A stretch of 64,000 nucleotides of DNA from Azolla caroliniana (taxonomy: Eukaryota; Plantae; Polypodiophyta), in assembly GCA_043228905.1 (NCBI GenBank), contig JBHGNT010000015.1, forward strand, positions 17,422,001-17,486,000, given 5' to 3'. The position numbers were made by a program, and so were the translations under genes. Positions 9,351-54,900 of the stretch are shown here, piece by piece. Under the pieces are notes generated by a model, which had not been told where the DNA came from, ran no database searches, and saw only the letters and a program-made list of their open reading frames with translations. Numbering within the stretch: the stretch's first letter is position 1; the number at the start of each line of letters is the position of its first letter.

Positions 9351-10318
9351 ATACCTAAACCCCATGCATCCAACCAGATACCCCCTCCCACTCAAGGGCC
9401 TTGCGTTTGACAGACAAGTTTGCAACTTGGCCACTAGGGTAAGTTTATTACGTTCGATATATTCGGTAAAAGCCAGTCTAAATCAAATGTCCGACATTGA
9501 ATCCCCCCTTTGGCACAACATCCAACTTGGATTGCTTTGAAAACATGACCTGTGGTAAAAGAGATTGCATTTCTCCATACAACACTCTTGATTTAGACAA
9601 ATGTGTAGGTCCGTAGATTTATCCGTCCTCCCTATACTCTAGATTGCTTGAGTTTGTCTTGGAAAAACGAAACAAAGTGAAGAGAGTTTGTTTTCCATGC
9701 AACTTTCCCCCCATATAAGGACAATGATCGATTGACAAGTCCACATCTCATAAACATAAAACCCATAGTTCTTCCCTTAAAAGTTTTGCTAGATCAAAGT
9801 CTACTTCTCGTACCTTTGAAAATCTTTACCATGTAGGAAATGATATTCCACAAATGCAAGAATGCGTAATCCGCTTTTCTTCGTAATTTAGAATTTTTTC
9901 CCAATACATATATATATTGTATACTTGGTTTGGCTTTGCAACTTGTGAGGCTCAAAATTTTCCTTTATCTGTATACGTAAATGGATGGATAGATAACTTT
10001 GATGTATAAATGTGTGTGTATGCGAGTAGATCGTACGTTTGAATGCCTTTTTTTATGCAACATTGCACAACCTTGCACACTCATATTTATTCCTCCAAGA
10101 GAAAGTGAATTGCATTGCACTAAAAAGAAAACATCTTGCCAAGGAACTTTCTTCCTTTACTAGAATATATGCATATAATACTATTAATACAAAGATTCTT
10201 GAATCTAGACATACCGTACATGACATGTACATGTGCGTTGAGACGTAAAGAAAGCGAAAAAAGCAAGGGACAATGTCAAAAGTGCTCATCGTATATAGGG
10301 TAATATCAAGTCTGGCCC

Positions 10319-31228: not shown

Positions 31229-31315
31229 TGTAAAAAGAATAGCGTGCGGAAGCAATAGAAAACTGAACACAGGAACACAAGTTTAATGGAGAGCTTGAAT
31301 ATACACAGTAGTCGG

Positions 31316-31375
<60 letters not shown>

Positions 31376-34300
31376 GCACACAAACTCAATTAAAAAATAA
31401 TACTCAATCTATACATAGGATGTGCTCAGTGAGCACCTTTATACAAGTCCATACGGACTAACAGAAGTACTGACACGTACTTCGATGCTCATAAGTGAGC
31501 TCTACAATAACTCCCAAAATATATTCCTATGTGGAATATCTTTCCAACGGCCTCGCGGTTTACGCACCGCTACAACTTCTCGTTGCGCACCGGTTTACGC
31601 ACTTGGTTTACACACCGGTCCGGCCTAACCGATCGATCCCAACTGATCCGGTTCTTGACTTGCACAACCAATTCGGCCAATGTTGAGCTTGTATCTCAAC
31701 ACTCCCCCTCAAGCTCAACTTGAGGTTCCATCCGCTCTTCCAGATCTACGCTCCGGTTCCTTCTAGCTTCACGCCTTGCTCACGCTCCTCGACCCTTCCG
31801 GTCGGCTTGCATGCTCGCGCGGCCCTTCTCAGCTCCCTTGTTGTCACGGTGTTGGCGCTTCTTCTGCCGTCTTCTCTTTCGCTTGGCCCTCAGTTGATTC
31901 AGCGTATTCGAATCAAACATCCGAATTGACTCGGCTTCCTCCGATCGGTTTTCGCTTTCGTCTGAGTTGGTTGTCTCCAACTCGTCTTCGATCTTCCTTC
32001 CCTTGATGGCTTCGTCTCCCCCACGCTTGGTTGGCTTCGACTCTTTCTTTCGACTGCTCCCCTTATGTCCATTTTCGGAATCTTCCGCAGATCCGCCCTC
32101 GGCTTCTTCAGCCGATCCGAAATCGAATTCATCATCTGACTCAGCGTCGCGGTCTTCCAGAACTTCTCTCCCCCTTCTGTGGTCATTCGGGACGTCTCTC
32201 CCCCTCAAGTTCAGCACGTCGAGGTGACACAACCCAAGTGCACCCAAGAATTTCCGCAACTTGTCCAGACCAAGAGGCTTGGTGAAGATGTCGGTGGTCT
32301 GCCGATCCGTCAGAACATACTAAAGTTCGACTTCACTAGAGAGGACACGCTCACGGATGAAATGGTAGTGCATCTCAATGTGCTTAGTCCGGGCGTGGAA
32401 GACGGGGTTCTTTGCTAGCTGGATGCTGCTGAGGTTGTCGCAGTAGATTGTCGTTGGATCAAATACCTCCACCTGCAGATCCTTAAGTAGCCGCTTCAAC
32501 CATATGGCTTCGCATGTTGCGACAATTGCTCCTCTATACTCGGCTTCGGTGCTCGACAACGCAACTGTTGGCTGCTTCTTGCTACTCCACATGATCATGG
32601 CACTCCCAAGAGAGAACACGAAACCGGACGTGGATTGGCGATCGACGACATTGTCGGCCCAGTCGGCATCGGTGTAGCCGACCAACTGCGTGGCTGTACT
32701 GGTCCGATATAGTAGCCCCCGGTCCTTAGTGCCGCTGACGTACCGCAGTACGCGTTGTGCACATTGAAGGTGCTCATTGGTAGGTCGCGCCATGAACTGA
32801 CTAATCACCCCGACTGGGTCGCTGAGAACTGGTCGGGTGATGGTCAAGTATATAAGGCTTCTGACTATCTGTCGGAACCTCGTCAGGTTGCATACCTTTC
32901 CAGAATCGGGGCGAAGCTTGACGGTTCTATCCAGAGGAGTCGAGACGGACTTACAATCTGCCATCCCAAATTTGAAGAGCATACTCAACACGTAATGCCG
33001 TTGGCTGATCAGTATGCCTTTAGGGGTGCGGATCACTTCGATCCTGAGGAAGTAATGAAGGTTCCCCAGATCCTTCATGTCGAATGATGCTGCAAGCTGG
33101 AGCTTTACGCGGTCAATTTCACCTAGGTCGGCGCCGGTGATGACCAAATCATGAACATAAAGTAAAATACTAACTGGCCCGAGTTGACCTTTCCGAATGA
33201 ATAGTGAGGAGTCCGATTTTGACGTTGCAAAACCCATCCCGACGCAATCGTTGCGTGATCTTCACGTTCCAGGCACGCGGGGCTTGCTTTAGTCCGTAAA
33301 GGGACTTCTTCAACCGGCACACTGCCGAAGTGTTCGTTCCGGAGTGAAATCTGGGGGGCTGTATCATGTACACCTGTTCCTCAAGCTCACCTTGCAAGAA
33401 CGCATTCTTTACATCCATCTGATGTAAGTGCCACCCCTTCGCCGCAGCTACTGTGAGCAAAGCGCGGACGGTCGTCATCTTCACGACCAGTGCAAACGTC
33501 TCATCGTAGTCGATGCCGTGTTGCTGTCCGTAGCCTTTCGTTACTAACCGGGCCTTGTATCGTTTGACCAAGCCGTCAGTGTTGTACTTGACCTTGTACA
33601 CCTACCTACATCCGATCGGCTTCACATCTTTCGGTGCGTCAACCAGGTCCCAGGTTTCATTCTCCACTAATGCGCGCATCTCTTCCTCCATTGCAGCACA
33701 CCAATTCGCGTCCTTTGCCGCTTCTGCGTAGCTCTCCGGCTCACGCACTTCCGCTACACGGGTCATGTACGCATAGTGATGTGCCATGTACTCATTGTAT
33801 CCGAACCGCACAATAGGGTTCTTCTAGCAGGTAGATCGGCGTAATTGCTCATTAGCCGATGTTGAGGCTTTCTTGGCCGACGCGGGCTTCGCTCTCAAAG
33901 ACCCGTCGTCACTTCCCTCGGAGTCGGACTCACATCGATCCGACTCGTTCCTATCCGTGCCGTAATCTGACACCTTCTTCTTCCCTTTTTCTTTGCATGT
34001 AAGCCGTCTCCTCGGCTTCTTGCGTGGGGAATGCACGACCGAGTCTCCACTACTTGCCGGCTCTTCTTCGGACTGGTCAAACCGACTCAGTCGCTCATAC
34101 GGTCCACTTAGCCGAAATGAAATCGGACTCTCATTGAGGGTCTTGATTTCGTGGTCATCTGGAGGCACTTCAGCCTCGCTGACCTCATCGTCAGAGCTTG
34201 AATTGGAGTTGAGGTCCGGAGTTGGAGGCAAGTACCAGGACACGGACTCGTCAAACACAACGTCGCGGCTCATGCGAGCTTGTTTGGTTCGGGGGTTATA

Positions 34301-36611
34301 GCAGTTATAACCCTTCTGCTCGTTTGAATAGCCAACTAAGATACACTTCTCAGCTTTTGCATCCAACTTCCTCCGTTTCTCCTTTGGCACATGCACATAC
34401 GCAATGCTACCGAAAACTCTCAAGTGTCATAGATTCGGCTTCCTTCCGAAATACAGCTCATCGCCGACACTTTGTCTCCGATCCGATTTTGGATGTAGAC
34501 TGTGGTTCATACCGCTTCGGCCCAATAGAACATGGGCAAGCTCTTTTCTTCCAACATTGCCCAGGCCGCTTCCACAACCGACCGATTCTTCCTTTCGGCC
34601 ACGCCGTTTTGTTCCAACGTATATCTACAACTAAATTCGTGCCGAATTCCCATCTATTGTAGATACCCGTTGAATTGACCAGAAAAGTACTCTTTTTCGC
34701 CATTCGACCGCAGGCACTTGATCTTTCTTCCTATTTCCCTTTCATCGAAACTCTTGAGGTCCTGGAAACAGTCGAAGACTTCACTCTTCTTCTCAATGAG
34801 GTAGATCCACGTGTGCCACATATAGTTGTCGATGAATGAGAGGAAATATCGACTCTCGCCAATACTAACGTTTTGTGTCGGCCCCCATACATCGGAATGT
34901 ATCAAGTCGAGCTTGTTCCGGCTCCGGTTACGCTTGTTAGGGAAAGGAAGTCAATGTTGCTTCCCTAGCTAACAGGCTTCAAAAATTTGTGCCTTCCAAC
35001 CACTAAATTTGGGCAATCCGAACACCACCTGTTTCGATTGCAGGTCCTGAAGCCGTTGATAGTTGACGTGGCCTATCCACTTGTGCCATAAGTCGATATC
35101 CGACTCGACTTTATATCCTTTCGCGAACATCCTCCCGTCTCTGCGCCCTTGCGCAATAACTCAGCCTTCTTCCTCAATGAAGCACTCGAGATGCATAAAC
35201 CAAACCTGCATCCCCTGGTCGACGATCTGTCCGACCGACACCAGGTTCTTCGTGATTGTTGGAACGTGTAACACATTCATGAGTTTCCCTTTTTGCCCGA
35301 CATGGCTCAGGGGAACTTCACCGACATTCGCGATCGGATGCAGAGTGTCGTCTCCGATTGCGACTACTCCCGATTGCATCGGTTTCTCAAGGTATGAGAA
35401 CCACTCCTTGTGGCACGTCATGTGGTTTGATGTGCCGGAGTCGATGTACCACACCTTGTCCGATTTCGGGGTGGACTTCTTCATCGAGTTCGCGTCGTGT
35501 CTCGTCACAAAGGCTGATCCTTTTTTGGCTTTTCCGAATCCTTCATCGTAGTGCGATCACTGCCGATTACCCTTGTCGGTTTTTCTAGAACTTGATCCGA
35601 ATCCGGTCCTCTTCGAATCTGCGCGTTTCTTCCAACACTCGCTCTCCTTGTGGCATTTCTTGCCATAGTACCAACATTCCGCGGCGGATTTCCCTTGTTG
35701 GTTCTCGTCGCCTCGACTCCCCCTGGTTACGGAGGGTCCAGAATCGTTGTCGGCATCACTTCGGTGCCTCTTTCCTCGGTCCCGTCAGCCATTTCCATTG
35801 CGCACCGACTCGCCTTGTCCGCCATGACCACGGGGCCTATCTCCCTCCATGTACAACATCTTGTTGTCGACATGCGTGCTCGTCGACGTACTCGTGTGGT
35901 TCTCCTCTATAAGGAGCATCTAGTGTAGGTCGAAATACGATGACATAATCTCCCGTGTACACACAATAGTTCGGAACGCTCCGAATTTCGACGCCAGTCC
36001 CCCAAGACAGATCTACACAATCTCGCCTTCCTTGACGTTCACATCGATAGAGGCTAAGGAGTCGCATATCTCTTTGATCTTCGAGGTGTAATCAGCCACC
36101 GACAAGTCGTGTTGTCGTAAGTTGCTCGCTCCTGTTGGAGTTGAAGCTTCTTGGTTGTGGTGCTTGCGGCGAAAATCTTCTTCAGATTTCGCCAAGCATC
36201 TTTCGGTGTTTTCACATCCCGAATGTAGCTTAGAAACTGTTCGCCCACATAAGACGCGAAGTAGTAGAGGACTCTGCTTGCCAATTGTTCCCACGCTGGG
36301 AAATCTCTGTGCGTCAAATTGGGTGTTGTGTCATTTGCTCCGTTGACGTAGCTCTAGTAACCGTGCCCGAGCAAGTACTAGTGCATCTTGTAGGACCAAG
36401 ACGCATAGTTGTTTTTGTCAAGCTTCTCGGTTGGAAGCGAGCTAGCCATGCCTCTATCCATTTTGTTTTTCCTGTTCTTTACGAAGGTCGACTGCAGAGG
36501 TTCTCAACCCTCGCGCTCTGATACCATGTAAAAAGAATAGTGTGCGGAAGCAATAGAAAACCGAACACAGAAACGCAGGTTTAATGGAGAGCTTGAATAT
36601 ACACAATACTC

Positions 36612-36647
<36 letters not shown>

Positions 36648-36970
36648 CACACAAACTCAATTAAAAAATAATACTCAATCTGTACATAGGATGTGCTTAG
36701 TGAGCACCTTTATACAAGTCCATACGGACTGACAGAAGTACTAACACGTACTTCAATGCTCATAAGTGAGCTCTACACTAACTCCCAAAATATATTCCTA
36801 CGCGGAATATCTTTCCAACGGCCTCACGGTTTACGCACCACTACGGCTTCTCGTGGCGCACCGGTCTGCGCACCGGTTATGCACCGGTCCCGCCTAACTA
36901 ATTGATCCCAACCGATCCAGTTCTCGGCTTGCACAGCCGATCCAACCAATGTTGAGCTTGTATCTCAACA
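31229..36970 (-). mobile_element. Full-length Ty1/Copia LTR retrotransposon (defective gag-pol)
   Basis: LTRs 31229-31701 and 36527-36970 (TG...CA); TSD CAAGC at 31224-31228 and 36971-36975; PBS TGGTATCAGAGC (tRNA-iMet) at 36515-36526; PPT at 31702-31718; order protease (WYIDSG), integrase (HSDVWGP), RT (YKARLV, MDVKNAFL), RNase H. Confidence 0.97.
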
Positions 36971-39900
36971 CAAGCAAATCGCAGGGTAAAGTGGCAACCA
37001 AAGTTGCATGGAAGAAAATAACATGATGCAAGAAAGAAGGGGGAACTTGGACCCATTGATCTAGAAACTAGGAGCAAAGCATTATTCAATTGGGCGATTT
37101 AGTAGTAAGGAGTCTCCTCCTTGGCAAGGAAGTATGGAAAGTGTTGATAAGGCGTAGATTTGATATGTGGTCTCCTAGAACAGGAGGCAAGTGGGATACA
37201 AGCTCAAAGAACTTGACATGGGATACAGTGGAACTAGGATGGAAAACTCCGAAAGGTAATATTCAGTTTTTCCATTATTCATGTAAGCTATTAGAGGCAT
37301 GAACTAATGTAAGCATTAGATAAGGATAGAATATAGATCTAGATAGAAAAGAGAGAGAGAGAAAGAAGGGTGCTGATCCACCCGACCACCCCCGAGTGAA
37401 GGGATCGAGATGGACTCGAGCCTCGATGCGCGTCCCATACCACCGTCGTGGCGTTGAGTCGTACCTAGTGCTCGCGCACTCGCTACAAGAGTTGACCCAC
37501 CACAAGACAGAGTCTCAACATAGTCAACAAGATGATCAAATGAGGGTAGCTAGGCCTCTTATTTATAGCGATACCCAAGGCCCCCAGGCAAGTTCACACT
37601 TGGCCTAATGGGTTGTCTCAATCCCGAGGATTAAAAGTAATCCTCCCCTTCTTTACACTCTCGTTTAACCCTCACACTTATCCACATGTATAGAATGCTA
37701 CGGTAAATTCTCACCACGGGATATTATATGGTCATGCTCGTAACATACTCCCCCTCTTTAAAACATTGCACTCTTGCAATGGAAAATTAGGGACGTTAGT
37801 TCTGAGAGTATTTTCGCGTTCCCATGTGGCATCTTTTATTGATTTATCCATCCATTTTATTTTAAATTCTCGGATTTCTTTAGTACGTAATTTTTTTGTT
37901 ATAATATCGAGAATTCTTTATGGTACATGTGCTTTAGAAGATAATTCTTCAGAAGTAACCAGAGTTTCAGTTGTAACTGTCTTGTCGCCAAAACCTAGAA
38001 GTTCTTTTAGACGACTCACATGAAAAATTGGATGAATTTCAACACCATCGGGAAGAGCGAGACAATAGGTTGATGACCCAATGCGTTTGAGGACTGTAAA
38101 AGGGCCACAAAACCGTGGGGCTAACTTAGCGCACTTACCCTTAGACAATGTCTTAGAATTGTGAGGTACACGTAAAAATACCTTTTGTCTAGGGTTGAAT
38201 ACACGAGGTTGCCTATGATGATCGACATAAAAACGCGCTCTATCTTGAGCTGTTTTTATATTATCTCGTGCAATATGAAACATATCTTGCATATCTCGAA
38301 GAAAGTTTTGCGTACTTCGCAACTCATCATGATGTATATTAACATCAATCGGGGCTCGTGGCTGAAAACCATAATCAACATAAAAGGACTATATCCCGTC
38401 GATGTATGCTTGGAGCTATTAAAAGCAAACTCCAAAATTGGGAGATAACGTTCCCATTTTGTTGGTTTTGCACCAATGTATGCTCGAAGCATGTCCTCAA
38501 TAATTTGATTTACTCGTTCTGTTTGTCCATCGGATTGAGGATGATCCGTGGAGCTCATGCTCAATGTAGTTTCTAACTTCTTGAAGACTTGCGTCCAGAA
38601 GTCACTAGTAAACTTTGGATCTCGATCACTCACGATATCCATCGGTAACCCATAAAAACGAAATAACTCGTCAACAAATTGGTAAGCCAATTTAGGAGCT
38701 GTTACCGTGGTTTTAGTAGCAATAAATCTGGCCATTTTAGTTAGTCTATCAACCACAACCGAGATGGCATCATGGCCTTTTTGGGTGCGAGGAAGGCTAA
38801 CAATAAAATCCATGGATATACTTTCCCACTTATTCTTGGGAATGTCCAAGGGACATAAAAGTCATGCGACTTTAAGTCGCTCGGCTTTGTTAACCTGACA
38901 TTGGTGACATTCAGTCACATAACTATGTATGTCAGGGCGCATCTTAAACCAATAGAATTGAGTGGAGATGGGAACGAGTGTATGATGTATTCTAAGGTGC
39001 CCTGCTGAGGGTGCATCATGGCATTCAAAAAGAATTCTCTTTTTGACCTCAGGCAAATCTAGAACACAAACCTTCCCATTACGGTAGAGCAGACCATTAG
39101 CAATGTGGAAGTATTCCTTTGAGGATGTGGTGGTGTCGGTTCTAGACTCAACTCTTGCCCAGTATTTTGCGAAATAACTGTCATCAGGATACTTTCCTCG
39201 AAGGTGATCATAAAGATCTGATGTTATTTCAGTGAAGCTAAGCATGTTAACTTCACGGATGCGACTTAGTGCATCAACGAAAGTGTTCATGGAACCTTTA
39301 CAATATCGTATGGAAAAATCAAAGGGTCGAAGCATGCTACGGTGTACCAACTTTTGGCCAAAAATCTAGTACTAAATCGAAGAAGAAAATAAACATTAAA
39401 AATTGTAAATAAATTTCAAAAAACAAAAAACAAATTCATTACGTCACACTCGTATGCACAAAGATATTATACATCACACTCGAAATGTCCCTAGGCCATA
39501 TTTAATACATTAATTGTTGCCCCAGTCTCCTAGGTAGAGTTGTACGAAAGCACACCTGGAGAAGGTATCCATTGTGATAGTTGGTCAGTCTCAGTATCTC
39601 TCTCTCTCTCTCTCTCTCTCTCTGGTATGGGTAGTTGAACGTGTCAGTTGGTATGTCTCTCTCTCTCTCTCTCTTCTGTCTCGAAGTTGTCAGACAGACA
39701 GTGGCAGAAAGTTAAAGAAAGACGACATATCTATTACAGGTCTATCTCTCTCTTTCTCTCTCTCACTCCACCTTCGAAGCTCTATTTCTTTCTTTATTTT
39801 TATTTCTCTCTCTCACTCCACCTTCGATTCTCTGTTTCCCCGCGTAGCTGTTCTTGTGTTCCCCTCTGTGCCAAGTTCGATCTCTGAACTCTGTATACGC

Positions 39901-40714
39901 AGAGATTTTTGTTTCCCCTGCTCGTTGTATGTGTTGTTGATTTTCCTTCCTTGTGTATGCTCGTTTGTCTCCTCTGCAGCAGCCTCGTGAACAACCTCTT
40001 GCATATAGGTGATTTTGAAGGCTTGGTGTGCTCCCAAGGTGTCGAAATCAACACGGTGTGGTACCTCTGCAAGTTGTACGACCTCCAGGTATTCTCTGTG
40101 TTGCATGCCCAACTGGTATGTTTTCTTTTTTTGAATGTTTCCTGTCTGTCTGTTTTTTATTTGCATGTGTATGGCCATTTTTAGGTTTTGATTATTCATA
40201 GTCTATGTGTTGCATGCCCAACTGGTATGTTTTTGTTTTCTTTGTGTTTCTCTGTGTTTCTTTTAAAAATGTATGACAATATTTTGATCGAGGTGGTTGT
40301 GTGTTAGACATGTTTGTACATGCAACGTAAATGGAGTTGGCTATGATGAGTTGCTATGTTTTCGTTTTGTTCTTGTTTCCTGTCCATCTGTTTTATTTTG
40401 TGTGAGTTTGACATGGATGAGTTTTTTTCCGACTATTTTGGGTTTTTGTGTGTTTGACATGGCTTGTACATGCGATGTGATGGAGTTGGCTATGATGATT
40501 TAAAATGTTTTAGTTTTCTTTGACTTTCCTATCCGTCTGTTTTTATTGTCTGTGTTTGACATGGATGAGTTTTTTTCCGACTATTTAAGGTTATTGTGTG
40601 TTTGACATGGTTTGTACATGCAATGTGATGATTTGCTATGTGTTGATGGTAATTGCTTGAGTTTTCTTCTAGTACATGCATATTCATTCCCTGAGAATTG
40701 AGTTGACTAGGACA

Positions 40715-43700
40715 ATGATGAGAAGGACACCCATAAAGAAGACATTGATGAAGGAGAAAGTGAAGACACCAGTGAAAGAAGGAAGAAGGACACCCATGAA
40801 AGAAAGCAAGAAGACACCCACAAGAGAAAGGGTGATGAATTCATCAACACAGAGAAAGAAGATGTACCACTCCATCAGTCGAGACACACCTCTTGGATGG
40901 AATTATTTCCTTCGAGCACGACCTGACATTTATCCAGAGCTGAGAGAGTGGTTGTTAAAAACCTGGGGGTCAGCACATCCCGACACAAGGCGAGGATTCC
41001 ACATAAGTGGTTTGAAGAGGGAATACATGAATTGATTGAAGACGAGATACGAACATGTTTATGATACAAATCAAATCACTAACAATGAGGTGGGTACTAT
41101 TTTTGCACGTGCTTTTGCATGTGAAGTTCAAGGTGGCATCGACGTAAATTGGGAAGATTTTAATCGGCACCGGTCAGAACATTACAAAGGGTCCTCCAGT
41201 ACCAACACTGGCTTGAAGTCATCTGGAACCTCTCATGTGGATATTCCAGCTACAACACCTGTCCACCAAGTTCTAGAGGCAAAGGTACAGGCCACAATGA
41301 CTGAAAAGCATGAACAAATGATGGCCGGTTGCATAGCTTCTATGAGCTCAAGAATACAAGCACTACTTGCTGATTTGGAAGCAGTTAAATCAGCTGAGAT
41401 ACAGGTAGAAAAGAAATTTTCTTCAATAAAAACTACATATGAATGGATTGCATCGACAATCCAAAATTCAGAAAGTGAGGTGTTGAAAGAGGAGTTGAAG
41501 AAAGAGCTGAACAATATGGGCACTCAATTAGGTTCACAGATGAGAGACCTTGATACTTGCAGGAATGCACATGAAGAAATAGATAATAAGTTGTCAGCCT
41601 TAAAGTTGCATTCTGAGAACCTTGCATGCTTGATGCAGGATTTAAAACAAAATGGTTCTGATACTTTGTGTCCATCTGTAATTGAGCACCCAAGTGGTAT
41701 AGAAAGTACCATTACTAGTATAGCTATATCACGGTATTGTCTTTAAAAGTTATTTATTTCTACTTCTCTGGTATAAATAAGTGAGTAGCTAATATATTAT
41801 AACTTGTGTTTGCAATCTTCCAGGTGTATATTTTGTGGCCTCGGATTCAAGCTGGAGGCTATGGATGTTGTGATTACACCATGTTTGCACACATATCATG
41901 TGCTATGTGCTAAGTATCATTTTGAGAAAGAGAATACATGTATGGACTGTAAAACTACAATTGCGGCTGAGTGGTACTATGCTTGGGGTTTAAAAGTACA
42001 CCCGTACAGTATGTGGCTCTACTATTCTATTGTTTGTATTATATGATGTCAATTAACATTTGGACTAGAACTAGTGTATGACACAATTCATACTTCAAAT
42101 TTAGTGTAATCTCTAACAACTATTATGTGGAACCCTAATTATGTGGGTTAGTATTGGCAGTACTCTTAATATATAATTGGTATGTGTAGTTCAAGGGATA
42201 TTTTCCAGAATTAGTAGTACTAAAAGGGAACCAGGTACAACATCGTCCAATCTATATTGCAACTTGCCTAGTATTAGTTTAGTAAACACTATACTTATAG
42301 TACACTGTTGACTGTTAGTATTGTTTGTGTAACTTGGGAATTAGTACTAGTAATGTAATTTGGGAACAAGGTGTATAGTAAATTGCTGAATAATAGTACA
42401 GTTATTGTAATTTGGAAATGAGGTGTGTCAAACACATATCACGTTTAGTACTAATACTGTTCAAGATTAATACTATTGGTGTAATTAGTACAAGTTATGT
42501 AACTAGGTGTGTAGAACACATATCACGTTTAGTATTACTTGTGTGCAAAATACCAATCTACATTTGTTGGATTAGTACTTAGTAAGTACTACATGGTTCA
42601 TGATTAGTACTATTTCTATACTTTGTGAACTAAGTTACTAGTACATTGCTCATGATTAATACTAGTTTTGTAATTTGGGAACTGAGTAGTACTTTGTTCC
42701 TTATTAGTACTAGTTTTGTACCTTATTAGTACTAGATCAGTAATCTAGAAAATAAGTGAGTAGTACATTTTGTAGGATTAGTACTAATTGTGTAATTTGA
42801 CTAAGTCAGTGGTACATTGTTCAGGATTAGTATTCCTTGTGTAATTTGGTAACTAAGTGAGTAGTATATTGTGCATGATTAGTACTACTTGTGTAAATTG
42901 GGAACTAAGTGAGCATTACATTGTTCGGGATTAGTACTCCTTGTGTAATTTGGTAACTAAGTGAGTAGTATATTGTGCATGATTAGTACTACTTGTGTAA
43001 ATTGGGAACTAAGTGAGCAGTACATTGTTCGGGATTAGTACTAGTTCAGTGATTTAGGAAATAAGTGAGTAGTATATTGTGCATGATTAGTACTACTTGT
43101 GTAAATTGGGAACTAAGTGAGCAGTACATTGTTCGGGATTAGTACTAGTTCAGTGATTTAGGAAATAAGTGAGTAGTACATTGTTCAAGATTAGTACTAC
43201 TTATTAATTTGACTAAGTCAGTGGTACATTTTTCGGGATTAGTACTTGTGTAATTTGGTAACTAAGTGAGTAGTATATTGTGCATGATTAGTACTACTTG
43301 TGTATATTGTGCATGATTAGTACTAATCGTGTATATTGGGAACTAAGTGAGCAGTACATTGTTCCTTATTAGTACTAGTTCAGTAATTTAGGAAACAAGT
43401 GAGTAATACATTGTTCAAGATTAGTACTACTTTTTAATTTGACTAAGTCAGTGGTACATTGTTCGGGATTAGTACTCCTTGTGTAATTTGGTAACTAAGT
43501 GAGTAGTATATTGTGCATGATTAGTACTACTTGTGTAAATTGGGAACTAAGTGAGCAGTACAGTGTTCCTTATTAGTACTAGTTCAATAATTTAGGAACT
43601 ATGTGAGTAGTACATTGTTCATGATTGGTACATTGTGTAATATGGGAAGCAGCTCTTGTGACCTACATTATATATTTTAGATGATGGTACTAACATTCAA

Positions 43701-45153
43701 GGTTTTTTTGTTTCTTGCAATGAATGTTGTAGTGTCAAGCAACTCCACGCCAGGGAAGGTAATGGAACAACCAACCCCTGTGCCTAAACCCTCAATATCT
43801 ACTGCACATTCCAAGGTTCAGGGACCATCATTACCAATAACCTATGATTTTTATGATGAGGATGAATGTATGAGAAGGGCCATTGGAGCAGTGGAACATA
43901 TGCTTCTACAAACAAATTCCCCAAGCTCCGGTCAACATCAAGAAATAGAGCCCACTAAGAAGAGAAATGCAGTTTCTTTACAAATAGAGCCCAGTAAGAA
44001 GAGAAATGCTGCAAGAATGTTGTATGGAAACGGCAAGAAAGGCAAAGTTGAATGCAATGGTGAGTCATATAAGTTCTCACCTGTCCGGAGCATTGTCAAC
44101 CTAATCCATTGTCTAATACCATGTACTTGTGTTACTAGCTGATGACGAAATGATATTTGGTGATGGAGATACGAGTCCAAAACCTGATCGTGAAGACGAA
44201 TTTATCACACTCCCAGGTACACGTCAAAAGCCAGACTTTGAAAACAATGATTTAGCTCATAACAACCCTATTTTTGTTGCTATTATAGATCATAACAACA
44301 TTGTTGAGCACCTAGATGTTGTGGAGAAGATGACCGAGCCCACCACTTGCAATGGGGTATCTACGGTTGTACAGTATGACGATGTAACATTAGGTAAAAA
44401 TGTGGCCCTAAACCCTATGTTCATTGTTTGCAAACTTTTGAGTATGTGAGTTGATACTAATATTCTTTGGAATCCCATTAATTAGGTTTACAAGAGCAGT
44501 CTGATTCCCAACTGCAATCAAATGAATCGGGAACTTCATGGAGCACAAGTGCAGAGTCAGATTCTGGTTAGAGTCAGAATCAAATTAACCTTTGCACGGA
44601 GGCAGACTCTGGAAGCACATCTTCCACACATGAGGATTGTGAGAAAAACGAAGCATTCATATGTGAAGAGCAGCTGGCATGTACAAACAATAGTATGTCT
44701 AATGAAGCCTATGAGGAGTGTGGAAAGAATATGGCAAGTACTGAAGAGAAGATTGAAGCCCATGAAGAGTGTGGAAAGAATATGGCAAGTACTGAAGAGA
44801 AGACTGATTGTACTGATAATGTGGCAAGTGCTGAAGAGAAGACTGATTGTACTGATAATGTGTTAGTAGTGTCTACTGATAATGTGCTAGTACTGTCTAA
44901 AGATTCCCATGAGGATCATGGAAAGAACATTGCTAGTAATGAAGAGGAGCTTGATTGTACTGAGAATGTGCTAGTAGTGTCTTGTGAAGCCCATGAGGAT
45001 CGTGGAAAGAACATCGCTTTCCTTGAAGATAAGCCTGATTGTACAGAATCCCATGAGGAGTGTAGAGCGAACAACGTTACTAATGAAGGGGGGCCTGATT
45101 GCACACCACAATGTCTTTCCTTGTTTGCACACCACAATGTAGTAGTCTTCTAA
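40715..45153 (+). pseudogene. Transposon accessory gene: basic TP-rich N-terminus, helical domain, coiled coil, RING-H2, acidic repeats (~830 aa); exons 40715-41733, 41824-42008, 42190-42234, 43733-44059, 44139-44393, 44486-45153
   Basis: All GT-AG junctions are phase-compatible (total 2499 nt); RING-H2 CIFC..CLHTYHVLC..CMDC; in-frame stops at 41033-41035 and 44569-44571 are transition-type; the 45-nt exon is the least certain. Confidence 0.75.
42330..43640. repeat. ~52-bp tandem array rich in AGTAC(T/A) in an accessory-gene intron
   Basis: Unit GGAACTAAGTGAGCAGTACATTGTTCGGGATTAGTACT...; heads at 42901, 42953, 43005; degenerates leftwards. Confidence 0.93.
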
Positions 45154-48100
45154 ATCTTCATTCTGAGGAAATTTGAGCACTGCAAAATGATCTCCAACTT
45201 CCAATAAAACTGCCAAGTCTTGATTTTGGTTGTAGTATACAATATTGTTTGAATGCACATTCTCTTCAATATCATCTTGTCGTTCAGGCTCAAGCTTCTA
45301 CAGCTTCCAGGGCTCCACGATTGATAGGTTGATGCATTTATCCCAAGCTTCATCTAGACACATGGAACAAAAGCATGATAAACTACGGAGTAACAATTGT
45401 GTTGTGTCCTTGCGGCTAAACCCTAACACACAATGGGTGTTGCGTGTGCCTTTCACGGTTTTACAACCATATGATTTAGTTCTATTGACCTCATCAGCGC
45501 GAACTTCAACAAACAATCTGTTCTTACCATCATTTGACATCTTCCATGTTAGCCACTGCACAACATCATGTGCATTTTGTAACTTAGCACCATTATTATC
45601 CAACTGCTCACTTGTAAGGGCACGTTTGATCACAACCCCCGCGCCATCATGCTCTCCTTTTCCATGTCCAGACCCGAAGTAATTCCATTGCATATGAATA
45701 TTGAATAAGGAGAAATACCTGCTTTGGTATCTCAAGTTTCCAACAAAATTAGTACTATGTTGTCAATTGAGAGTACTACACTTCCATTAATACTGATTTA
45801 GTACAAATACAAAACAAAGCATAGCACAACGTATCCATTGAGAACACTCTACACTTATTAAAAGATAAATAGTACTATGTTGTCAACCAACAGTACCTGG
45901 CATCCATTTAATACTAACTTAGTATGGATATAGCACAAAGTATAGTACAATGTGTTCATGGAAAGCACTCTACATGTATTAACAGATAAATAGTACAAAA
46001 TGTTCAATATCGGATAGTACAGTACAATGTGTCCACAGAGAACACGACCCTCCTTAGAAGATCATTAGTACTACAAGACATGTACTTTACATCCCCCAAT
46101 AAACACTGATTTAGTATAGATACAACACATAGTACAATACAGTGTGTTCATGGAGAACGCTGAACATTGATTAATAGATAATCAGTACCACACAGTGTGT
46201 TTAAAAGATGAGTACAATACTATGAGTACAACATGAGTAAATACTGATTTAGTACAATTCTCTGAAGGACGGACAATACTATGAGTACAAGATGAATACT
46301 TTACATCCTCCTGTAAACACAACATAGTACAGATACAACACACAACATAGTACAGATACAACACACAACATAGTACAATGTGTCTATGGAGAACCCTTCA
46401 CATGGATTAAAACATAATTAGTACAATTCTCTTAAGGACGGACAATACTATAAGTACAAGATGAGTACTTTGCATCCTTTTGTAAACACAACATAGTACA
46501 GAACCAACACACAACATAGTACAATGTGTCTATGGAGAACCCTTCACATGGATTAAAACATAATTAGTACAATTCTCTTAAGGACGGACAATACTCTAAG
46601 TACAAGATGAGTACTTTACATCCTTTTGTAAACACAACATAGTACATAACCAACACACAACATAGTACAATGTGTCTATGGAGAACCCTTCACATGGATT
46701 AATCGATACTTAGTACAATTCTTTTAAGCACAGACAATACTATGAGTACAATATGAGTACTTTACATCCTTCTATACACACAACATAGTACAGATACAAC
46801 ACACAACATAGTACAATGTGTCTATGGAGAACACTTCACATGGATAAAAAGATAATTAGTACAATTCTCTTAAGGACGGACAATACTATGAGTACAAGAT
46901 GAGTACTTTACATCCTTCTATAAACACAACATAGTACAATGTGTCTATGGAGAACACTTCACATGGATTAAAAGTTACTTAGTACAATTCTCTTAAGGAC
47001 GGACAATACTATAGAGTACAATACAAGTACTTTACATCCTTCAGTAAATACTGATTTAGTATAGATACAACACATAACATAGTACAAACAAAATTAGTAT
47101 GCATGCATCCATTCACAAGTGCAAGATTCGAATAGTTACAAACATAATTAGTATGCATCCATGTGAATAGTACTGTTTATTAATAGTTAGAAACATAATT
47201 AGTATGCATCCACTAACACAAGAATTACTTCCTTACACATTGCATGATAAGTACTAAACATATGGATTAAAAATTACCTGGCGATAAAGTAGAACGATCG
47301 TGCCGCCTTAAATTGCGAGGCAACACCATCAGACCAAACCCAATGACGGTTAAAGGTTAACCCTAGAGAAAATAAATCTGCATGGTGAAGCTTAAAACAA
47401 TGTTGAACAAATAGTGTATCATGCTTTTTATCATCTGAAATGTAAAATATTGATTTCTTATGTAACTCACCGTCTTGCCTCCAATAGCAAATATGTACAA
47501 GTATTGTACATTGATCATTGTACCAATGCATTGATTGAACCTCATTTTGAACTTTAAATGTATAGTTTTCTGCAAAATCAATAACGGATACGATGACACC
47601 TGTTGGTAAGTTATTAATACATTCCTTGAATTGTGAATTTTGCCAATAACTCCAGAAGTTATGTGGAATGAACTCCCTAAGTTGTTTCTTAAATTCTGAG
47701 ACAAGGGTAGCAGCACATGTCTCCTTATATACTTCCTTGATACGCTTAGTTATAACTCCCTTGCCAATATTTTCAATCACATACTCCAAATATTTCCATT
47801 TCACGATATGACTATTTCCCAAATCAAGCTCCTGCCTACAAAATAATGGTAGCGGACAAACCTTACATGTTCTTAATAGACATGTACGACGATGCCACTC
47901 ACATGATGGTTCTTTTTCACAAACACAAGACCTCTATAGCTCAGAAACGGATGCATAAGTCATGTTTCGTGCATTACACCTATTATCCTCCCCATTTGGT
48001 CTACAAATCTCACAAGTGCAGACACATAATTCCCCGTGTATACCCTTAGAATCAGTACGCATTGCATTCACTGCTAGCCTTAACATGTCCATCTTCACAT

Positions 48101-48925
48101 GGTACACACAACAACATGTATTCCTCTCATTTAATTTTCTAACATAAAATGGTTTCAAACCTTGGAACTTGCGGAATCCAACAGTCAAGCGTGGATGTTG
48201 GTCTTTAAAGTTCATGTACAATTCAGCCTACATCAACCAATATATATAGCAAACATTAATATACACTTGGTCAAAACACAAAGTTATGGAATGTGAATTG
48301 ATATAAAAAAATGGAATACCTCTGTCATCTCCAAGAAGTGTCTAGGGTGAATCTGGTACTTACCCTGACTTATTCGTTGTCTACACATGTCCTTCTTATT
48401 TGGTGAGACACGCGTATTTTTGGCCCAAAATGAATCCACTTTCTCAATAATCTCTTGAGATAAGGCATCACATCGTCGTCTACGTCCCAACCCCAGCCAC
48501 TTGAATTTGCTTGAGTGTATATTTTGGCGATGTTTCCTCAAGTTCCTTCTTTGAATACCTAGGGCTAAGGCAACTTTAGTATCACTATATTTTTTTTCTC
48601 TCGCACCGTTCACAACCATGTGTAGGGCTGCCCTCTTTGCAGCAAGTTTGTCTAAGCTCTCTACACCTTTCACTAAGTCTAGGGATGACTTCATAGACTC
48701 CACAATCTCTTCTGAAACACATTGGTCCCTAAATTTTATTCTCTCCATGTCTTCATTCAAACTTTGATGGTGTAACACTCTACAGATAATATCCCTACGA
48801 TCCTCTTCACTAAATCTCTTCGTTATTTCTACCAAATAACTGACTATGTGAAGAACCACTCGTCTCTTAGTCCTTTCAGATATGCATGAGTTACTTGACA
48901 ACTCACTCTCGTTAGGAACCCCCAT
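44971..48925 (-). pseudogene. Sola2-like DDD transposase (~770 aa); exons 48925-48320, 48227-47278, 45718-44971
   Basis: VIDFAENY, YISDDKKHD, WSDGVASQFK, YFGSGHGKGEHDGAG, TCCCVYH, LSCFCSMC; GT-AG introns 48228-48319 and 45719-47277 restore the frame; premature TAGs at 47934-47936 and 45298-45300; start codon uncertain. Confidence 0.85.
46251..47085. repeat. ~146-bp tandem array (6 units, variable 23-bp subrepeat) in transposase intron 2
   Basis: AGTACAATTCT heads at 46251, 46420, 46566, 46712, 46858, 46981 (periods 169, 146, 146, 146, 123); older degenerate units extend to ~45750. Confidence 0.93.
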
Positions 48926-51900
48926 TCGGTCACTAGATTTATCCACAAAAATTAAGTGTCTTGCGAAAGTAGTTAATGTTATATAGACTCAACCAAGAAA
49001 ACACAATCAAATGTTTTTAAATGTGGCTTGCAAAGTGAGAAATATTTTGTTTCAAACATTAGAATTACATATCAAATATGACAAATGTCAATTCTAAAAA
49101 TTTAGTACTGAAATATGAAGAAATGAAACATTTTAGTACTGAAAATTAAAAAATGGTTGGAAGGAACCTCCAATGGTGGAGGGAGCGTTGGATATGCCGC
49201 CTCGATTTGGTGGAAGGAGCCCCGATTTGGTGGAAGGAACCTCCAATGCCGCCTCGATTTGGTGGAAAAAGCCCTAAATCACCACGACATCAACTGCAAT
49301 CGGTGGAAGTAAGAAAGTCGTTGTCGAAGAAGTCACTATTGGCTGCTACCTAAACCCTCAGAACAGTCTCTGTACCTCAACCTAAACCCTAACAAAAACA
49401 GAAACCCTAAAAAAATCAGAAATCCTGAACTCAAAGTCTCCAACCAGACATGGATGTCTGAGATTTAGATTGAAGGAAAATCAGAAACGTGACATGGATG
49501 TCTGTGATGAAAAGCTCAGAGGGATAGAGGAAGAGGAGTATGAGGGGAAGCGCCAAAATCGACGTGAGGGGAAAATAGCCCCCAAAATGGAAGAACATCT
49601 CCTCACGTGTTCCCCCCACTCCTTCTACAGTAAATGACACTTGTACTACAGTCACCCCACTCTCCAAAATCTCTAATTTTTTTTCTGAATTATTCAGTAC
49701 TAACAGTATTGAGAGTATTGACAATTTTTGTGGCAAAAAACAGTACTTTTCTGGTACACTGTAGCGTGCTTCGACCCCAAAGTCTTGGTTGAGATCAGCC
49801 CATCGTGCCTTACGACCTTTCAGGTCTTGTTGGTCACAAAAATATTTCAAGGACTCGTGGTCCGTAGTTACCACAAAGCGATTTCCATAAAGATAATGGC
49901 GCCATGTTTTGAGCGCATGTATAACTACAAATAATTCCTTTTCTTGAACGGTATACCGACATTGAGCAGAATCAAGTTTCTTACTCTCGAATGCTATTGG
50001 TTTACCATCTTGATATAAGACAACACATAATGCTATTGGTTTCAACCTCAAAAGGTTTTGAAGGATCGGGTAAAAGAAGTGAAGGAGCCTTGCACACCAG
50101 GTCCTTGAGTTCCTTAAAGGCGAGGTCTAGTGTAGCATTCCAGACAATATGTTTTGTATACTTACGCGTTTGACCTTCTAGAAGATCAATAAACGACATT
50201 GTCAATGGGAGTAATTACGAAGGCATTTTCGCAAAAACCCTACAAAACCAAGGAGTGATTGAACTTCTCGAATATTCCGAAGAGTGGGCCAAAGCTTGAT
50301 TTTCTCGATGTGAGAAGGATCAATTTCAACTCCTCGTTTGGTTATGAGATGTCCAAGATAAGTAATTGATTTCTTGAAGAGCTCACATTTTGAGATCTTC
50401 GCATAAAACTGTTTGTCATGCAATGTTTGTAAAACAAAGCAGACATGTTTACCATGTTCTTGTAATGTACGGCTATAAACTAAAATATCATCCAAGAAAA
50501 TAACAACAAATTTTCCAAGTTGGTCTCAGAAAATGTCATTCATTTCTTGTTGAAATGTAGCCGGAGCATTGGTCAAACTAAAAGGCATAACCAAAAACTC
50601 ATAATGGCCATAATGCGTATGAAATGTCGTTTTAGGAACATCGTCCTCACTTATACGAATTTGATGGTAGCCAATATGGAGATCAAGTTTCGTAAAATAC
50701 CGAGCTCCCTGGAGACGGTCAATTAGATTGTCTGCCCGGGGCAATGGATACGAATTCTTGATTGTCACTTTATTCAAGCGTCGGTAATTAATACACATAC
50801 GCCATGTGCTCTCTTTCTTTTTAACCAAGAGAACAGGTGCCCCCCCATGGAGATTTGCTATAACGTATATAACCCATTCGTAAATAGTCCTTGAGTTGCT
50901 TAGCTACCTCATCCTCTTCTGATCGACTTAAGCGATTAGGAGGTACACTTATTGGTGCAACGCCAGGTACAATATCTATACGATGGTCTATATTACGTTT
51001 AGGAGGTAAACCATCTAGTAGTTCACTCGGAAAAACATCACGAAAATCATTTAAGATTTCATCAAGTTGTTGTTCAAAATATGTTAATTGAATCGAGAAA
51101 TTATCGATATTGTAAACGTGAATGTCCGGATCAAGTACACAATAAAATAGAGTAGAACAAGACAACTCGGATATTGATGGACATGAGGAAACATTCGAGA
51201 GGGATTGTTTTTTGACACATTGAATAAAATGAGTACAATGGTTCAGTACAAAAGTTATTGAATGATGAACCAATCAATAAATAAAGAAGAGTTTTTATTA
51301 TAAAACCAGGGATAACCCAATATTACATCGGTGGTACAAAGATTCATTACATGGAAGTCTACTTCCTCTATATAAGTATCAATAGAAATTCCTAATGAAT
51401 GAATCACCCCGTTGATGTATTGTACTCTTCCATCAACCAAGTGCACCGTGTAGGTGTGATCACTTATTGTGGGTTGGATTCCCCATATTTGAACCAAACA
51501 ATCATTGACAAAGTTGTGTGAGCTTCCCGAATCAAATAAAAATAGTACGGGAGATCCATTGATATACCCGTTTGCATGTAGTAAATCATTGGGACCCAAT
51601 ACATAGTGAGGGAAAGAACATTGAGAATAACTTAAATGATGTGTATAGACATGAAGGACATTAGGAATTTGACCTGTATGGTCTGCAGCTTTAGCTTTGT
51701 TGTCGTGCTCTTTCCATTGGAGCTTTCGACATTGCTCTTTTGTGTGACCCTTCTTTTTGCAGAATACGCAAAAAGGATGTTGTCGCTTACAATCATGATC
51801 CATGAATTCGTTGGGTGTCTTGCGTTTCCCAACGAATTGCGATTGCTTAGTCCCGGACGCTTCATTGGGTTTGTTGTGGTCCTTCTTCGAAGTGCGTTAA

Positions 51901-54900
51901 TAGCGAAGAACTATTTCAACGGCCTCTTCGAAGGATTTTGGATCCTTATCGTGCACTCTCCAGTGATAGTCCGAATTGGGGATGCCATTGACAAAACAAG
52001 CTATTAACCAGTTGTCCCATTCTAGAACCGATTTTTGGATTTGGGTTCTAGCATGGTGGACATAGTCTTCTAGCGAGGAAAATTTCCGACTAGAGAGTTT
52101 CATTAAAGCTTGTGTTGCCTCAGTTCGAGAGGGAGGTTGCAGAAATTGGCCCTTGAAAACTGTGACAAAATCTATCCAGCTATCGGGCATTTTCCCCAAA
52201 GTTCGAAGCCCATGCCACCAGGCGGCGGCCTTACCCCCTAGTTCTCGGCCGACATATGCAATCTTCATACTATCTGGCGTGGGAGAGAGCTCAAAATGAG
52301 ACTCCCATCGGCCCAGCCACGTGCAAATTGCTTCTTCGGTTCTTTCCTTTTTTTGTCCCGTAAATGGCTTAATGACAAATGATGGTTCACCCTATCGCTC
52401 ATCAGGTCTATTAGTCTCACGTTGTAAACTAATGACACGTGCCTCGAGAGCACTTTGAGATTGCCGAAGTTCGGTCATCTGTTGAGCGGTGAAACTAAGG
52501 TATTGGGTTATTTGCGAAAAATACATCTCAATGGACATTTGTCTAGGAGGACTCCCTTGAGTTCCTTCCGCTTGAGTGGATGACATCGGGTCGTTATTTT
52601 GAGCCATTAAATGATTATTTCTGGAAAAGAAATACGATAAGGTCAGACAAATAGTCATAACATCATGTCGTGATGTAAACATATCATGGGCAAACATTAA
52701 TCGATATCATGATCTCATGTCAATACCCCTCTAGACGTATGATATAAGGTTCAAGATCAAGTTACTATGGTAACACAAAGGTGTTTTAAAAACCATGGGG
52801 GTGACAAATTAATGTCTTTCCCTGATCTCTATATCGATTTTTTCATGGTAGCTCCCCGAGGCTCAACCATGTATGTTCGCGTCATGAGTAGTTTATACAC
52901 GAAAAAAATGTTAACAGTAAACTATGTTTCTATGCCCACATATGTGGTTTCGGCTCTTTAAGTCCTATTACGAGGACCCCGAAGTGCACTTAGACCTCAA
53001 GTCTAAACATGTGTTATAGTCATATGTATCAACAATGTTGTATGGTCTTAGTCATATTTGAACTTGAGACCTCAAGAACAAATACATTAAACACTTGAGT
53101 CAACCAAGTAGATTACTCTTCTTTGAATGTTTAATGTTTCATGCGTATAAGAGATATGCAAGGCATTTGCCCATATATGTTTTTTTAAAAGAAACATATA
53201 TGTCAAGAGTCCTTATTTCGCCCTCATTTACTACAACTATGTTGGTACGTTACCTAACCTCAAGTCTCGTAATTACGATGGCATACGCCAAAGTGCAACC
53301 TAATGGTCAAGCCAAATGAGCCCTCTTTTCGTAGTAGGCCCACATGGCCCATCACATGGTCACGTCATTACGAATGCCTCTCGTAAGAATGATCTCATGG
53401 TGGCATCGTATCCATGTAATGAGGGAGGGATGTTGGATACGTGTGTCATAGGAGCGACCTCACATGAAGTGGGTCAAGCCCTACGTACTCAACATCATTA
53501 TGGCTATAGGCGTTTCTTTACATAATGAAATATCGAAGTCACCAACGGGGATTTCAACAATAAAAAATTGTTGAAAAAAGGGATGGTGACAACGCTATTC
53601 TCACAAAAATGTGAGGACAACCACCAAGATCATTTCCCCGAAAAGGAAAACATTCAATTTAAAATCACGTACTAACTTATATACACATATGTATATTATC
53701 ACATATATACGATCAACTACGTATACACGTGACCATATATGCCTATATTAAACAAATCGTTATATTTAATAGCCAAAAATGACATAATCGAGGCATATAC
53801 CTCTACACACACGAGACATCCAAAAATAAGGGTTAATCGTAATACGCAATTGAGGTATTGACCTCTTACGCATATCATTTACAACGAAATCGAGGTATTG
53901 ACCTCATACGCATACGTAACATATGTATGTGAGCGTAATACGCAATTGAGGTATTAACCTTGTGCTCATACGACACTAATCACATATTCAATATATGTCA
54001 AGTGAGTTATTGACCCCATACACATATGTAAACGTTTTATACAACCAATTAATTACCACTTCAACATCATTGAATATATATATATAAAATTACATATTAA
54101 CCATACACATGATTAAATTGGGAGAAGAAAGAATAGAAAAAACAAGAAAGATTACCGAAGTGCTTTTGTTGATCGTTGTCTGGATCAAGGCGACCGCACA
54201 TCAATCAATCACCATCAATCAACAAAACAAAAGACCATAAAAGAAACATTAGCACATTAGCTCTGATACCAACTGTTAGAGACATGAACTAATGTAAGCA
54301 TTAGATAAGGATAGAATATAGATCTAGATAGAAAGGAGAGAGATAAAGAAGGGTGCCGATCCACCTGACCACCCCCAAGCGAAGGGATCAAGATGGACTC
54401 GAGCCTCGATCCGCGTCCCATACCACCGCCGTGGCGTCGAGTCATACCTGGTGCTCGCGCACTTGCTACAAGAGTTGACCCACCACAAGACAGAGTCTTG
54501 ACGTAGTCAACAAGCTGATCAAATGAGGGTAGCTAGGCCTCTTATTTATAGCGATACCCAAGGCCCCCAGGCAAGTTCACACTTGGCCTAATGGGTTGTC
54601 TCAATCCCGAGGATTAAAAGTAATCCTCCCCTTCTTTACACTCTCGTTTAACCCTCACACTTATCCACGTGTATAGAATGCTACGGTAAATTCTCACCAC
54701 GGGATATTATATGGTCATGCCCGTAACATAAGCTTGGTCATAGAACTATATAGAGCAAGAGGGCCTTTCTAGCAAGTGGATCACAGAAGAATTGGATGAG
54801 GATTTCCTAAAACAATACTGGAAACAATTATGGGCCACTAAGATTGTCGAAAAAATAAAAGCTTTCTTATGGTTATGTAGTCATAGATATCTTCCGGTAG

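Follow-up and report, generated by a model that had tools for sequence, protein, structure and literature searches.

A stretch of 64,000 nucleotides from the fern Azolla caroliniana (contig JBHGNT010000015.1, positions 17,422,001 to 17,486,000; hereafter the window, with coordinates counted from its first letter) contains a Sola2-type DNA transposon that carries a second gene facing its transposase gene from the opposite strand. This cargo gene encodes a basic head, a conserved N-terminal domain, a coiled-coil region and a RING-H2 finger, and its family is maintained under purifying selection rather than passively captured. The two-gene element is a real and undescribed variant of an otherwise ordinary class. 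A short motif, AGTAC, with its palindrome TAGTACTA, has accumulated in tandem arrays within predicted introns of both genes. We propose, tentatively and with a confidence a little short of even, that the cargo protein docks on these arrays in its own element and shields the element from silencing.

The transposon spans 10,454 bp (39324-49777) and is bounded by 26-bp terminal inverted repeats (TIRs) of the form GGG..CCC inside a 4-bp target site duplication (TSD). It splits the RNase H region of a full-length Ty3/Gypsy retrotransposon that has several frame breaks. When the 10,454 bp and one CAAA are taken out, the RNase H-integrase frame of this host element is restored, and the empty site is seen in a contig of run X19 that skips 10,458 bases. 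An initial annotation, made from the sequence alone, had called the RING gene transposon-borne, and the TIRs, TSD and empty site bear this out. The long terminal repeats (LTRs) of the Gypsy element differ by a Kimura two-parameter distance of 0.048, so that the age of the Sola2 insertion is capped at a few million years if the usual plant substitution rates are assumed. The window copy is dead: with one stop codon in the cargo and two in the transposase gene, it can make neither protein intact.

TIR termini of Sola2 elements follow a G-R-G rule, and the GGG..CCC ends are of this type. A 4-bp TSD is likewise a Sola2 feature (PMC3627910), and the transposase motifs (DFAENY, EVQSMHW, SDG, QFK and GHGKGEHDG) agree, as do three acidic catalytic residues, with the Sola2 alignment of Additional file 10 in that paper, a comparison made by eye without a profile score. 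As judged from its sequence, the element passes those Sola2 tests that could be run. The window transposase is missing a C-terminal part that is present in relatives. Twenty-nine longer transposase relatives were found at E<=1e-10, and the first transposase intron is seen in seven reads of a relative.

The cargo gene had been annotated as ending at 42008, but this position is a splice donor; an in-frame exon is predicted at 43733-44059, and the gene probably continues into further exons. Splicing of intron 1 is confirmed in a relative, where reads run from the start of the RING exon into the end of exon A of P0007/P0050 (17 in run X21, 6 in X23). The splice sites of intron 2 are predictions whose junction is absent from the reads, and sense-strand RNA reads of the relative match 43856-43887 in exon 3. 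This exon contains DEDECMRRAIGAVEH (43840-43900, + strand), which the expressed relative retains between diverged flanks. We take this acidic-RAI sequence to resemble a ubiquitin-interacting motif (UIM), with the UIM serine missing.

The basic TP repeats described earlier as resembling cyclin-dependent kinase (CDK) sites are indeed there: the head, residues 1-52, has a net charge of +14 and four full [ST]-P-x-[KR] sites (TPIK, TPVK, TPMK and TPTR). As many sites were reached in 1 of 100,000 residue shuffles of the head, a result that overstates their significance because a 24-bp DNA repeat at 40762-40830 generates part of their multiplicity. Three or four of the sites persist as SP or TP in the divergent relatives P0008, P0009, P0053 and P0070, and none is present in P0060 or P0063. 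The head of P0060 has a low predicted local distance difference test score (pLDDT) in the model of that relative and is predicted to be disordered there.

A low-complexity linker separates the N-terminal domain from the heptad region, which at about 120 residues is longer than the 90 first assigned to it. Its a and d positions are 50-90% hydrophobic, compared with 4-20% elsewhere, and the P0060 model has two long helices in this region; a homodimer prediction for domain plus coil, in which the alignment was not used, scored 0.00 and speaks neither for nor against a dimer. The in-frame TGA of the window copy falls at codon 107 and cuts the N-terminal domain. This position is Leu in 14 of 41 readable fetched relatives and Glu, Thr or Lys in the rest.

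The first search for relatives of the cargo protein, among 1168 candidates, gave 8 clusters (36-96% identity) that represent 89 member sequences, and at least four well-separated subfamilies can be distinguished. From the six closest clusters 49 members were fetched, and in 33 of these a single open reading frame (ORF) covers all of exon A, a count that is biased, as gene callers favour intact ORFs. Synonymous changes were assessed by permutation, with each change reassigned among sites that match it in base and in CG/CHG context. The window RING and that of the expressed relative are separated by 19 differences, 10 of them synonymous where 4.9 are expected (p=0.007), and the Nei-Gojobori (NG86) ratio of nonsynonymous to synonymous rates (dN/dS) is 0.24. 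For exon A, 40 of 108 differences from locus L002 are synonymous (26.0 expected, p=0.001), and an excess is also found against L005 (p=0.015) and L006 (p=0.022). Thus four of eight cargo comparisons give p<0.05, and the other four lie in the same direction. The dN/dS of exon A ranges from 0.24 to 0.49, including 0.42 for L004, which is in the NG86 table and was left out of the permutation test. A dN/dS near 1, named in the initial annotation as a refuting result, was not found.

Two of the seven fetched loci, L002 and L005, have the cargo beside the transposase 3′ end, with RING gene, array and facing layout; L003 carries RING, array and exon 3, and the remaining loci are short or fragmentary. 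Like the window copy, L002, L004, L005 and L006 contain stops. Where L002 (3115-3775) and L005 (4252-4788) are compared with the window, the transposase 3′ end is 92-95% identical, the cargo 85-88% and the array 67%, which reflects either faster change of the cargo or swapping of modules between subfamilies. At L001 (1590-3283), a 1.7-kb cargo fragment adjoins an opposite-strand gene that looks R2R3-MYB-like by eye.

Both genes are expressed in a subfamily about 90% alike, for which polyA runs with stranded reads show the cargo on the plus and the transposase on the minus strand; no RNA dataset is listed for the exact window stretch. In X3, the summed depth of 892 contigs over 3.5 kb suggests many copies and is not a copy number.

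The annotated domain containing FARAFACEVQGGIDVNW is present and is the most conserved part of the protein in the distant relatives P0008 and P0009, where it is 55-60% identical; the coil reaches 28-34%, and head and linker 17-22%. A search of 1.84 billion representatives with a 104-position profile of the domain yielded 13 proteins (E<=0.001), one of which (P0064, E=5e-4) was discarded as a repeat artefact. The only cargo relatives with a named organism are three hypothetical proteins of Adiantum nelumboides. In two of the profile matches, P0060 and P0063, a single ORF encodes first the domain, then the coil and then the RING-H2, as in the window; these proteins are about 21-23% identical to the window type (hhalign probability 98%), and their RING is 40% identical, sharing a GF and a terminal W. 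Because this order of parts is retained at about 22% identity, domain, coil and RING form one old unit.

AlphaFold2, given the 116-aa domain of a 98%-identical intact copy and 22 alignment rows, returned five helices with short strands at a pLDDT of 90.2 and a predicted template modelling score of 0.84, and the P0060 model repeats this order of helices and strands. The description of the domain as unrecognised holds: it is predicted to be a folded module, it is conserved, and Pfam assigns it to no family. DUF1985 matched none of 6 domain stretches or 7 cargo proteins (E<=10), and PMD was not matched either. A possible resemblance to C-terminal portions of DUF1985, PMD and Transposase_32 domains remains a lead that Pfam does not support, and a Myb, SANT or trihelix domain likewise gave no Pfam match in the cargo. 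With the domain model, Foldseek against PDB gave a best E of 1.3, VIA-align against 48,161 chains a best Z of 3.0 (root-mean-square deviation 3.3, 74 aligned; best Z of 2.7 in a second look) and BFVD a best E of 0.75; these searches of PDB and BFVD found nothing, which does not show that the fold is new. A PDB sequence search with the domain gave 0 matches at E<=10. ESM Atlas held no usable match to the domain and, for P0060, only generic RING clusters under 0.9. Viral and prokaryotic contigs yielded no P0060 relatives, and viral contigs no match to the TIR.

The RING has the pattern C-x2-C-x15-C-x-H-x2-H-x2-C-x10-C-x2-C, with its eight ligands in the order C, C, C, H, H, C, C, C. It matches Pfam zf-RING_2 at E=2.6e-5 and 24.8 bits, under the gathering cut-off of 27.3, and the P0060 RING reaches zf-RING_11 (27.3 versus a cut-off of 27). 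All eight zinc ligands are unchanged in the expressed relative, and this conservation argues that the RING is needed for something. The earlier label of canonical C3H2C3 RING is apt for these ligands and fails for the residues that contact the ubiquitin-conjugating enzyme (E2). The window RING has His in place of Trp four positions after ligand 6 and Met in place of Pro after ligand 7; the expressed relative has His and Ile at these positions, and P0060 and P0063 have Ser at that of Trp. All 2132 sequences with the ligand spacing of the plant ATL ligases have Trp after ligand 6, and mutating it in ATL10 removed the interaction with E2 (PMC3161093).

With both the E2-contact Trp and the Pro missing, action as a standard single-chain ubiquitin ligase (E3) is doubtful. 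A partner-dependent E3, an E3 with an unusual E2 surface or a decoy would fit the cargo RING equally well. In the full-length P0060 model the RING has a pLDDT under 50 and no RING fold is predicted, which says little because only 3 of 11 alignment rows cover the RING. As for the remark that RING cargo is unusual, it is fair, and precedents exist: a RING finger is encoded by Chapaev transposases and by RAG1, in which it is an E3 (PMC4411706), and two Mutator cases with RING are on record (PMC6446971). These precedents make RING cargo uncommon and not unprecedented.

Three tandem arrays in the introns, each with its own period (52, 121 and 146 bp), are enriched about 28-fold in the motif AGTAC, which is the top-enriched 5-mer in each of them (40-45 per kb, compared with a background of 1.5). 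Beyond the arrays, both introns are likewise enriched in AGTAC (31 and 22 per kb). The four arrays that lie elsewhere in the window hold 0, 0, 0 and 3.8 per kb. A near-perfect 268-bp triple repeat at 1848-2646 and a 33-bp tandem array at 8657-9351 served as controls for motif enrichment. All 23 copies of the palindrome TAGTACTA in the window lie within the element, the other 53.5 kb having none, and the half-site TAGTAC is found 93 times in the element versus 20 outside. The longest match between the two array introns is at most 19 bp, so one amplification event does not explain both. Relative to L002, 71 of 82 motif columns are kept, compared with 411 of 538 other columns. A reading of the motif as a branch point (CTAAT) was rejected, as the copies in the transposase intron lack it on the sense strand.

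For VANC-type proteins, the target motif has accumulated as tandem repeats within noncoding regions of the element that encodes them; VANC21 binds YAGTATTAY in tandem repeats in the introns and ends of VANDAL21 (PMC5735166). One base separates that motif from TAGTACTAC. The arrays here, one of them in the cargo's own intron, follow this layout of VANDAL anti-silencing targets. On the reading that we favour, the conserved N-terminal domain would recognise AGTAC/TAGTACTA in the element's own introns, the basic head would add non-specific DNA contact that cell-cycle kinases could switch, and the coil would space or oligomerise the protein. The RING would serve as the effector and turn the ubiquitin system against a silencing factor at the element, perhaps as a decoy or as an E3 that is non-standard or depends on a partner. 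The cargo had first been proposed to be a chromatin-associated E3; the motif arrays lend circumstantial support to a role at chromatin, and a plain E3 is doubtful for a RING that lacks the E2-binding Trp. The most specific form of the proposal, a sequence-targeted ubiquitin effector of a fern Sola2 element, in which a new DNA-binding fold would recognise the TAGTACTA arrays and a non-standard RING, under a CDK switch, would mark or sequester host silencing proteins there, is in our judgement unlikely to hold in full.

Several observations weigh against the favoured reading. The E2-binding Trp is missing not only from the window RING, it is also absent from the expressed relative and from P0060 and P0063. 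The N-terminal domain is net neutral (14 K+R, 14 D+E), so that DNA binding is not readable from its composition, and it matches no DNA-binding family in Pfam. The likeness of TAGTACTAC to the binding motif of VANC21 may, for an AT-rich 9-mer, be chance. GTAC also lies inside both TIRs and in subterminal sites, which makes the transposase equally available as the protein that binds the motif. L002 and L005 are near-identical decayed copies and hence not independent. The close intact copies have too few differences to be informative (L001, p=0.08; L003, p=0.14), and the comparisons of the RING with L002 (p=0.12) and of exon 3 (p=0.27) are not significant. Finally, the RNA comes from three runs of one study on a differently labelled organism, and its two transcripts may stem from different elements.

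The GTAC sites in the TIRs and subterminal regions can also be taken to mean that the arrays are read by the transposase or by a host GTAC factor, and that the cargo is concerned with proteins alone, its N-terminal domain picking a substrate for the RING, either a host silencing protein or the transposase. SBP-box/SPL factors of the host bind a GTAC core, the neutral charge of the domain would suit such a role, and so would the presumed UIM-like motif of exon 3, kept in the expressed relative even though its serine is missing. However, transposase binding sites are normally clustered at element ends, whereas about 119 AGTAC copies lie in the two internal introns and 11 near the ends. The position of arrays inside the cargo's own intron moreover matches the VANC pattern (PMC5735166). 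We regard this account as rather doubtful.

Still less probable, in our estimate, is a transposition cofactor that binds the motif and loads, imports or times the transposase, for example in S phase through the CDK-type sites, leaving silencing unaffected. En/Spm TnpA is a precedent for such a cofactor, as is the Myb-like protein of Harbinger elements. The two-gene layout, the conserved [ST]PxK/R sites and the motif copies near both ends (39367-39374, 49643, 49697 and 49743) would fit this role, and the Harbinger protein binds both the TIR region and the transposase (PMC5339849). Most motif copies, however, are kilobases from the ends, loading does not require a RING, and the Sola2 elements of the published alignment are described by transposase alone (PMC3627910). 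That the cargo is a host RING gene captured passively (Pack-type cargo), with arrays that are neutral repeats, is highly improbable: the ligand spacing shared with the large ATL class, the chance that P0060 and P0063 are host genes and the stops in several copies speak for it, but it is already weakened by the dN/dS below 1 and faces the synonymous excess, the largely intact exon A ORFs (subject to gene-caller bias), the separate subfamilies, the 13 profile matches with no named host protein beyond the Adiantum hypothetical proteins, and one motif that tops three arrays of different period.

How a motif-bound transposon protein lifts silencing was still open in the 2017 VANC paper (PMC5735166), and with a candidate DNA reader and a ubiquitin-system domain joined in the same chain, one anti-silencing route could be tested directly. 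An anti-silencing role for the cargo would mean that motif arrays and an accessory gene had also been combined in another transposon superfamily, and in ferns. In the most specific form of the proposal, the system would have been reached independently of VANC, with its effector in the same chain, and would give a lead to the removal of silent marks. Should the mechanism prove wrong, the 100-aa domain is still a small, unassigned module, modelled with confidence and worth solving, and the element represents a well-delimited plant Sola2 family.

Features of the Sola2-type element and its Gypsy host in the window.
Feature	Position	Strand	Remarks
Ty3/Gypsy retrotransposon hosting the insertion	37288..54730	-	LTRs 37288-37747 and 54273-54730, 95% identical; TSD TAAGC
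Left TSD	39320..39323	.	CAAA, 4 bp
Left TIR	39324..39349	+	26 bp, GGG start, GTAC core inside; 92% complementary to right TIR
148-bp tandem repeat upstream of cargo start	40297..40668	+	GTACA enriched (6 copies), AGTAC none
Cargo exon A, basic head	40715..40870	+	aa 1-52; four [ST]PxK/R sites
Cargo exon A, conserved N-terminal domain	40877..41182	+	aa ~55-156; broken by TGA 41033-41035
Cargo exon A, heptad/coiled-coil region	41282..41650	+	aa ~190-312
Cargo intron 1	41734..41823	+	90 bp, GT..AG
Cargo RING-H2 exon	41824..42008	+	ligands at 41825-41950
Cargo intron 2 (predicted)	42009..43732	+	~1.7 kb; 52-bp tandem array rich in AGTAC/TAGTACTA
Cargo exon 3 (predicted)	43733..44059	+	in frame with RING exon; contains DEDECMRRAIGAVEH
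Further cargo exons (probable)	44139..45150	+	acidic, repetitive; sparse sense-strand reads
Sola2-type transposase gene	45110..48925	-	three exons; introns 48227-48319 and 45719-47277
Transposase stops	47934-47936 and 45298-45300	-	
Transposase intron 2 (predicted)	45719..47277	-	121-bp and 146-bp tandem arrays, AGTAC-rich
Right TIR	49752..49777	-	26 bp
Right TSD	49778..49781	.	CAAA

Polycomb-recruiting motifs in Arabidopsis include (CT)n tracts and teloboxes, and both kinds of sequence occur in the element, with (CT)n tracts on the upstream side of the cargo (39597-39770) and two AAACCCTA teloboxes on the upstream side of the transposase gene (49384-49409). The 3′ ends of the facing genes meet at 45101-45133. 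Contigs of X3 with loose ends at 45101 (four) and 45110 (five) suggest that other copies continue both genes past these points. Together with L002 and L005, which join 45133 directly to the array, these loose ends indicate that internal deletions recur there.

Elsewhere in the window, a host gene of the sulfite exporter TauE/SafE family lies at 5356-8153 on the minus strand (Pfam E=5.6e-5 for the main exon). A 407-aa exon at 18931-20154, also on the minus strand, has no Pfam match and presumably resembles, from its DGHW motif, the tail of a SIZ1-type SUMO ligase. Decayed fragments of a reverse transcriptase like that of long interspersed nuclear elements are found at 28815-30828 on the plus strand. 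A Copia element at 31229-36971 has LTRs that share about 85% identity.

The element shares with known Sola2 elements a 4-bp TSD, short TIRs and the motif series DF(A/S)ENY..EVQS.HW..SDG..Q.K..W.(F/Y)F...HGKG..DG.G..(I/V)KR..GTR..H. (PMC3627910). The published alignment consists of animal and amoebozoan elements, whereas the present element is from a plant, and amoebozoan Sola2 cargo is Fanzor rather than a spliced domain-coil-RING gene. Literature searches, with Repbase and most subscription journals outside their scope, found no report of a fern Sola2 or of such a RING cargo, and the available parts of PMC5751038, PMC9387920 and 10.1101/2021.09.26.461848 contain nothing on this element or its cargo. 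Within the Sola group, Sola1-1_Ec32 of Ectocarpus is likewise a large element with an opposite-strand accessory gene proposed to act on its own DNA, but that gene encodes a ParB-methyltransferase (PMC12477816), in contrast to the RING protein of this Sola2 element.

As to the RING itself, plant ATL ligases have the identical ligand spacing of 2-15-1-2-2-10-2 (PMC3161093). They carry Trp after ligand 6, whereas the cargo RING has His and is without a membrane helix or GLD motif. Chapaev and RAG1 resemble the present case as cut-and-paste systems encoding a RING finger (PMC4411706); in those systems the transposase chain itself contains the RING, whereas here it belongs to a separate gene on the opposite strand. 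Harbinger elements similarly place a second gene of basic or DNA-binding character beside a DDE/DDD transposase. Their accessory protein is Myb/SANT-like (PMC5339849), while the cargo adds a RING and a coiled coil and its motif is mostly internal.

The closest parallel in layout is VANDAL with its VANC gene (PMC5735166): both are DNA transposons with an extra gene and a short AT-rich motif amassed in intron or end tandem repeats, and in both the repeats diverge between subfamilies while the motif persists. VANDAL elements are of the Mutator type, whereas the fern element is a Sola2 by its motifs and 4-bp TSD. VANC proteins have DUF1985 and DUF287, with no RING described in the text available, and the cargo has no DUF1985 match. 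Binding and demethylation have been shown for VANC, whereas for the cargo, binding and an effect on silencing are proposals; it is VANC-like in layout and not a VANC by sequence or host element.

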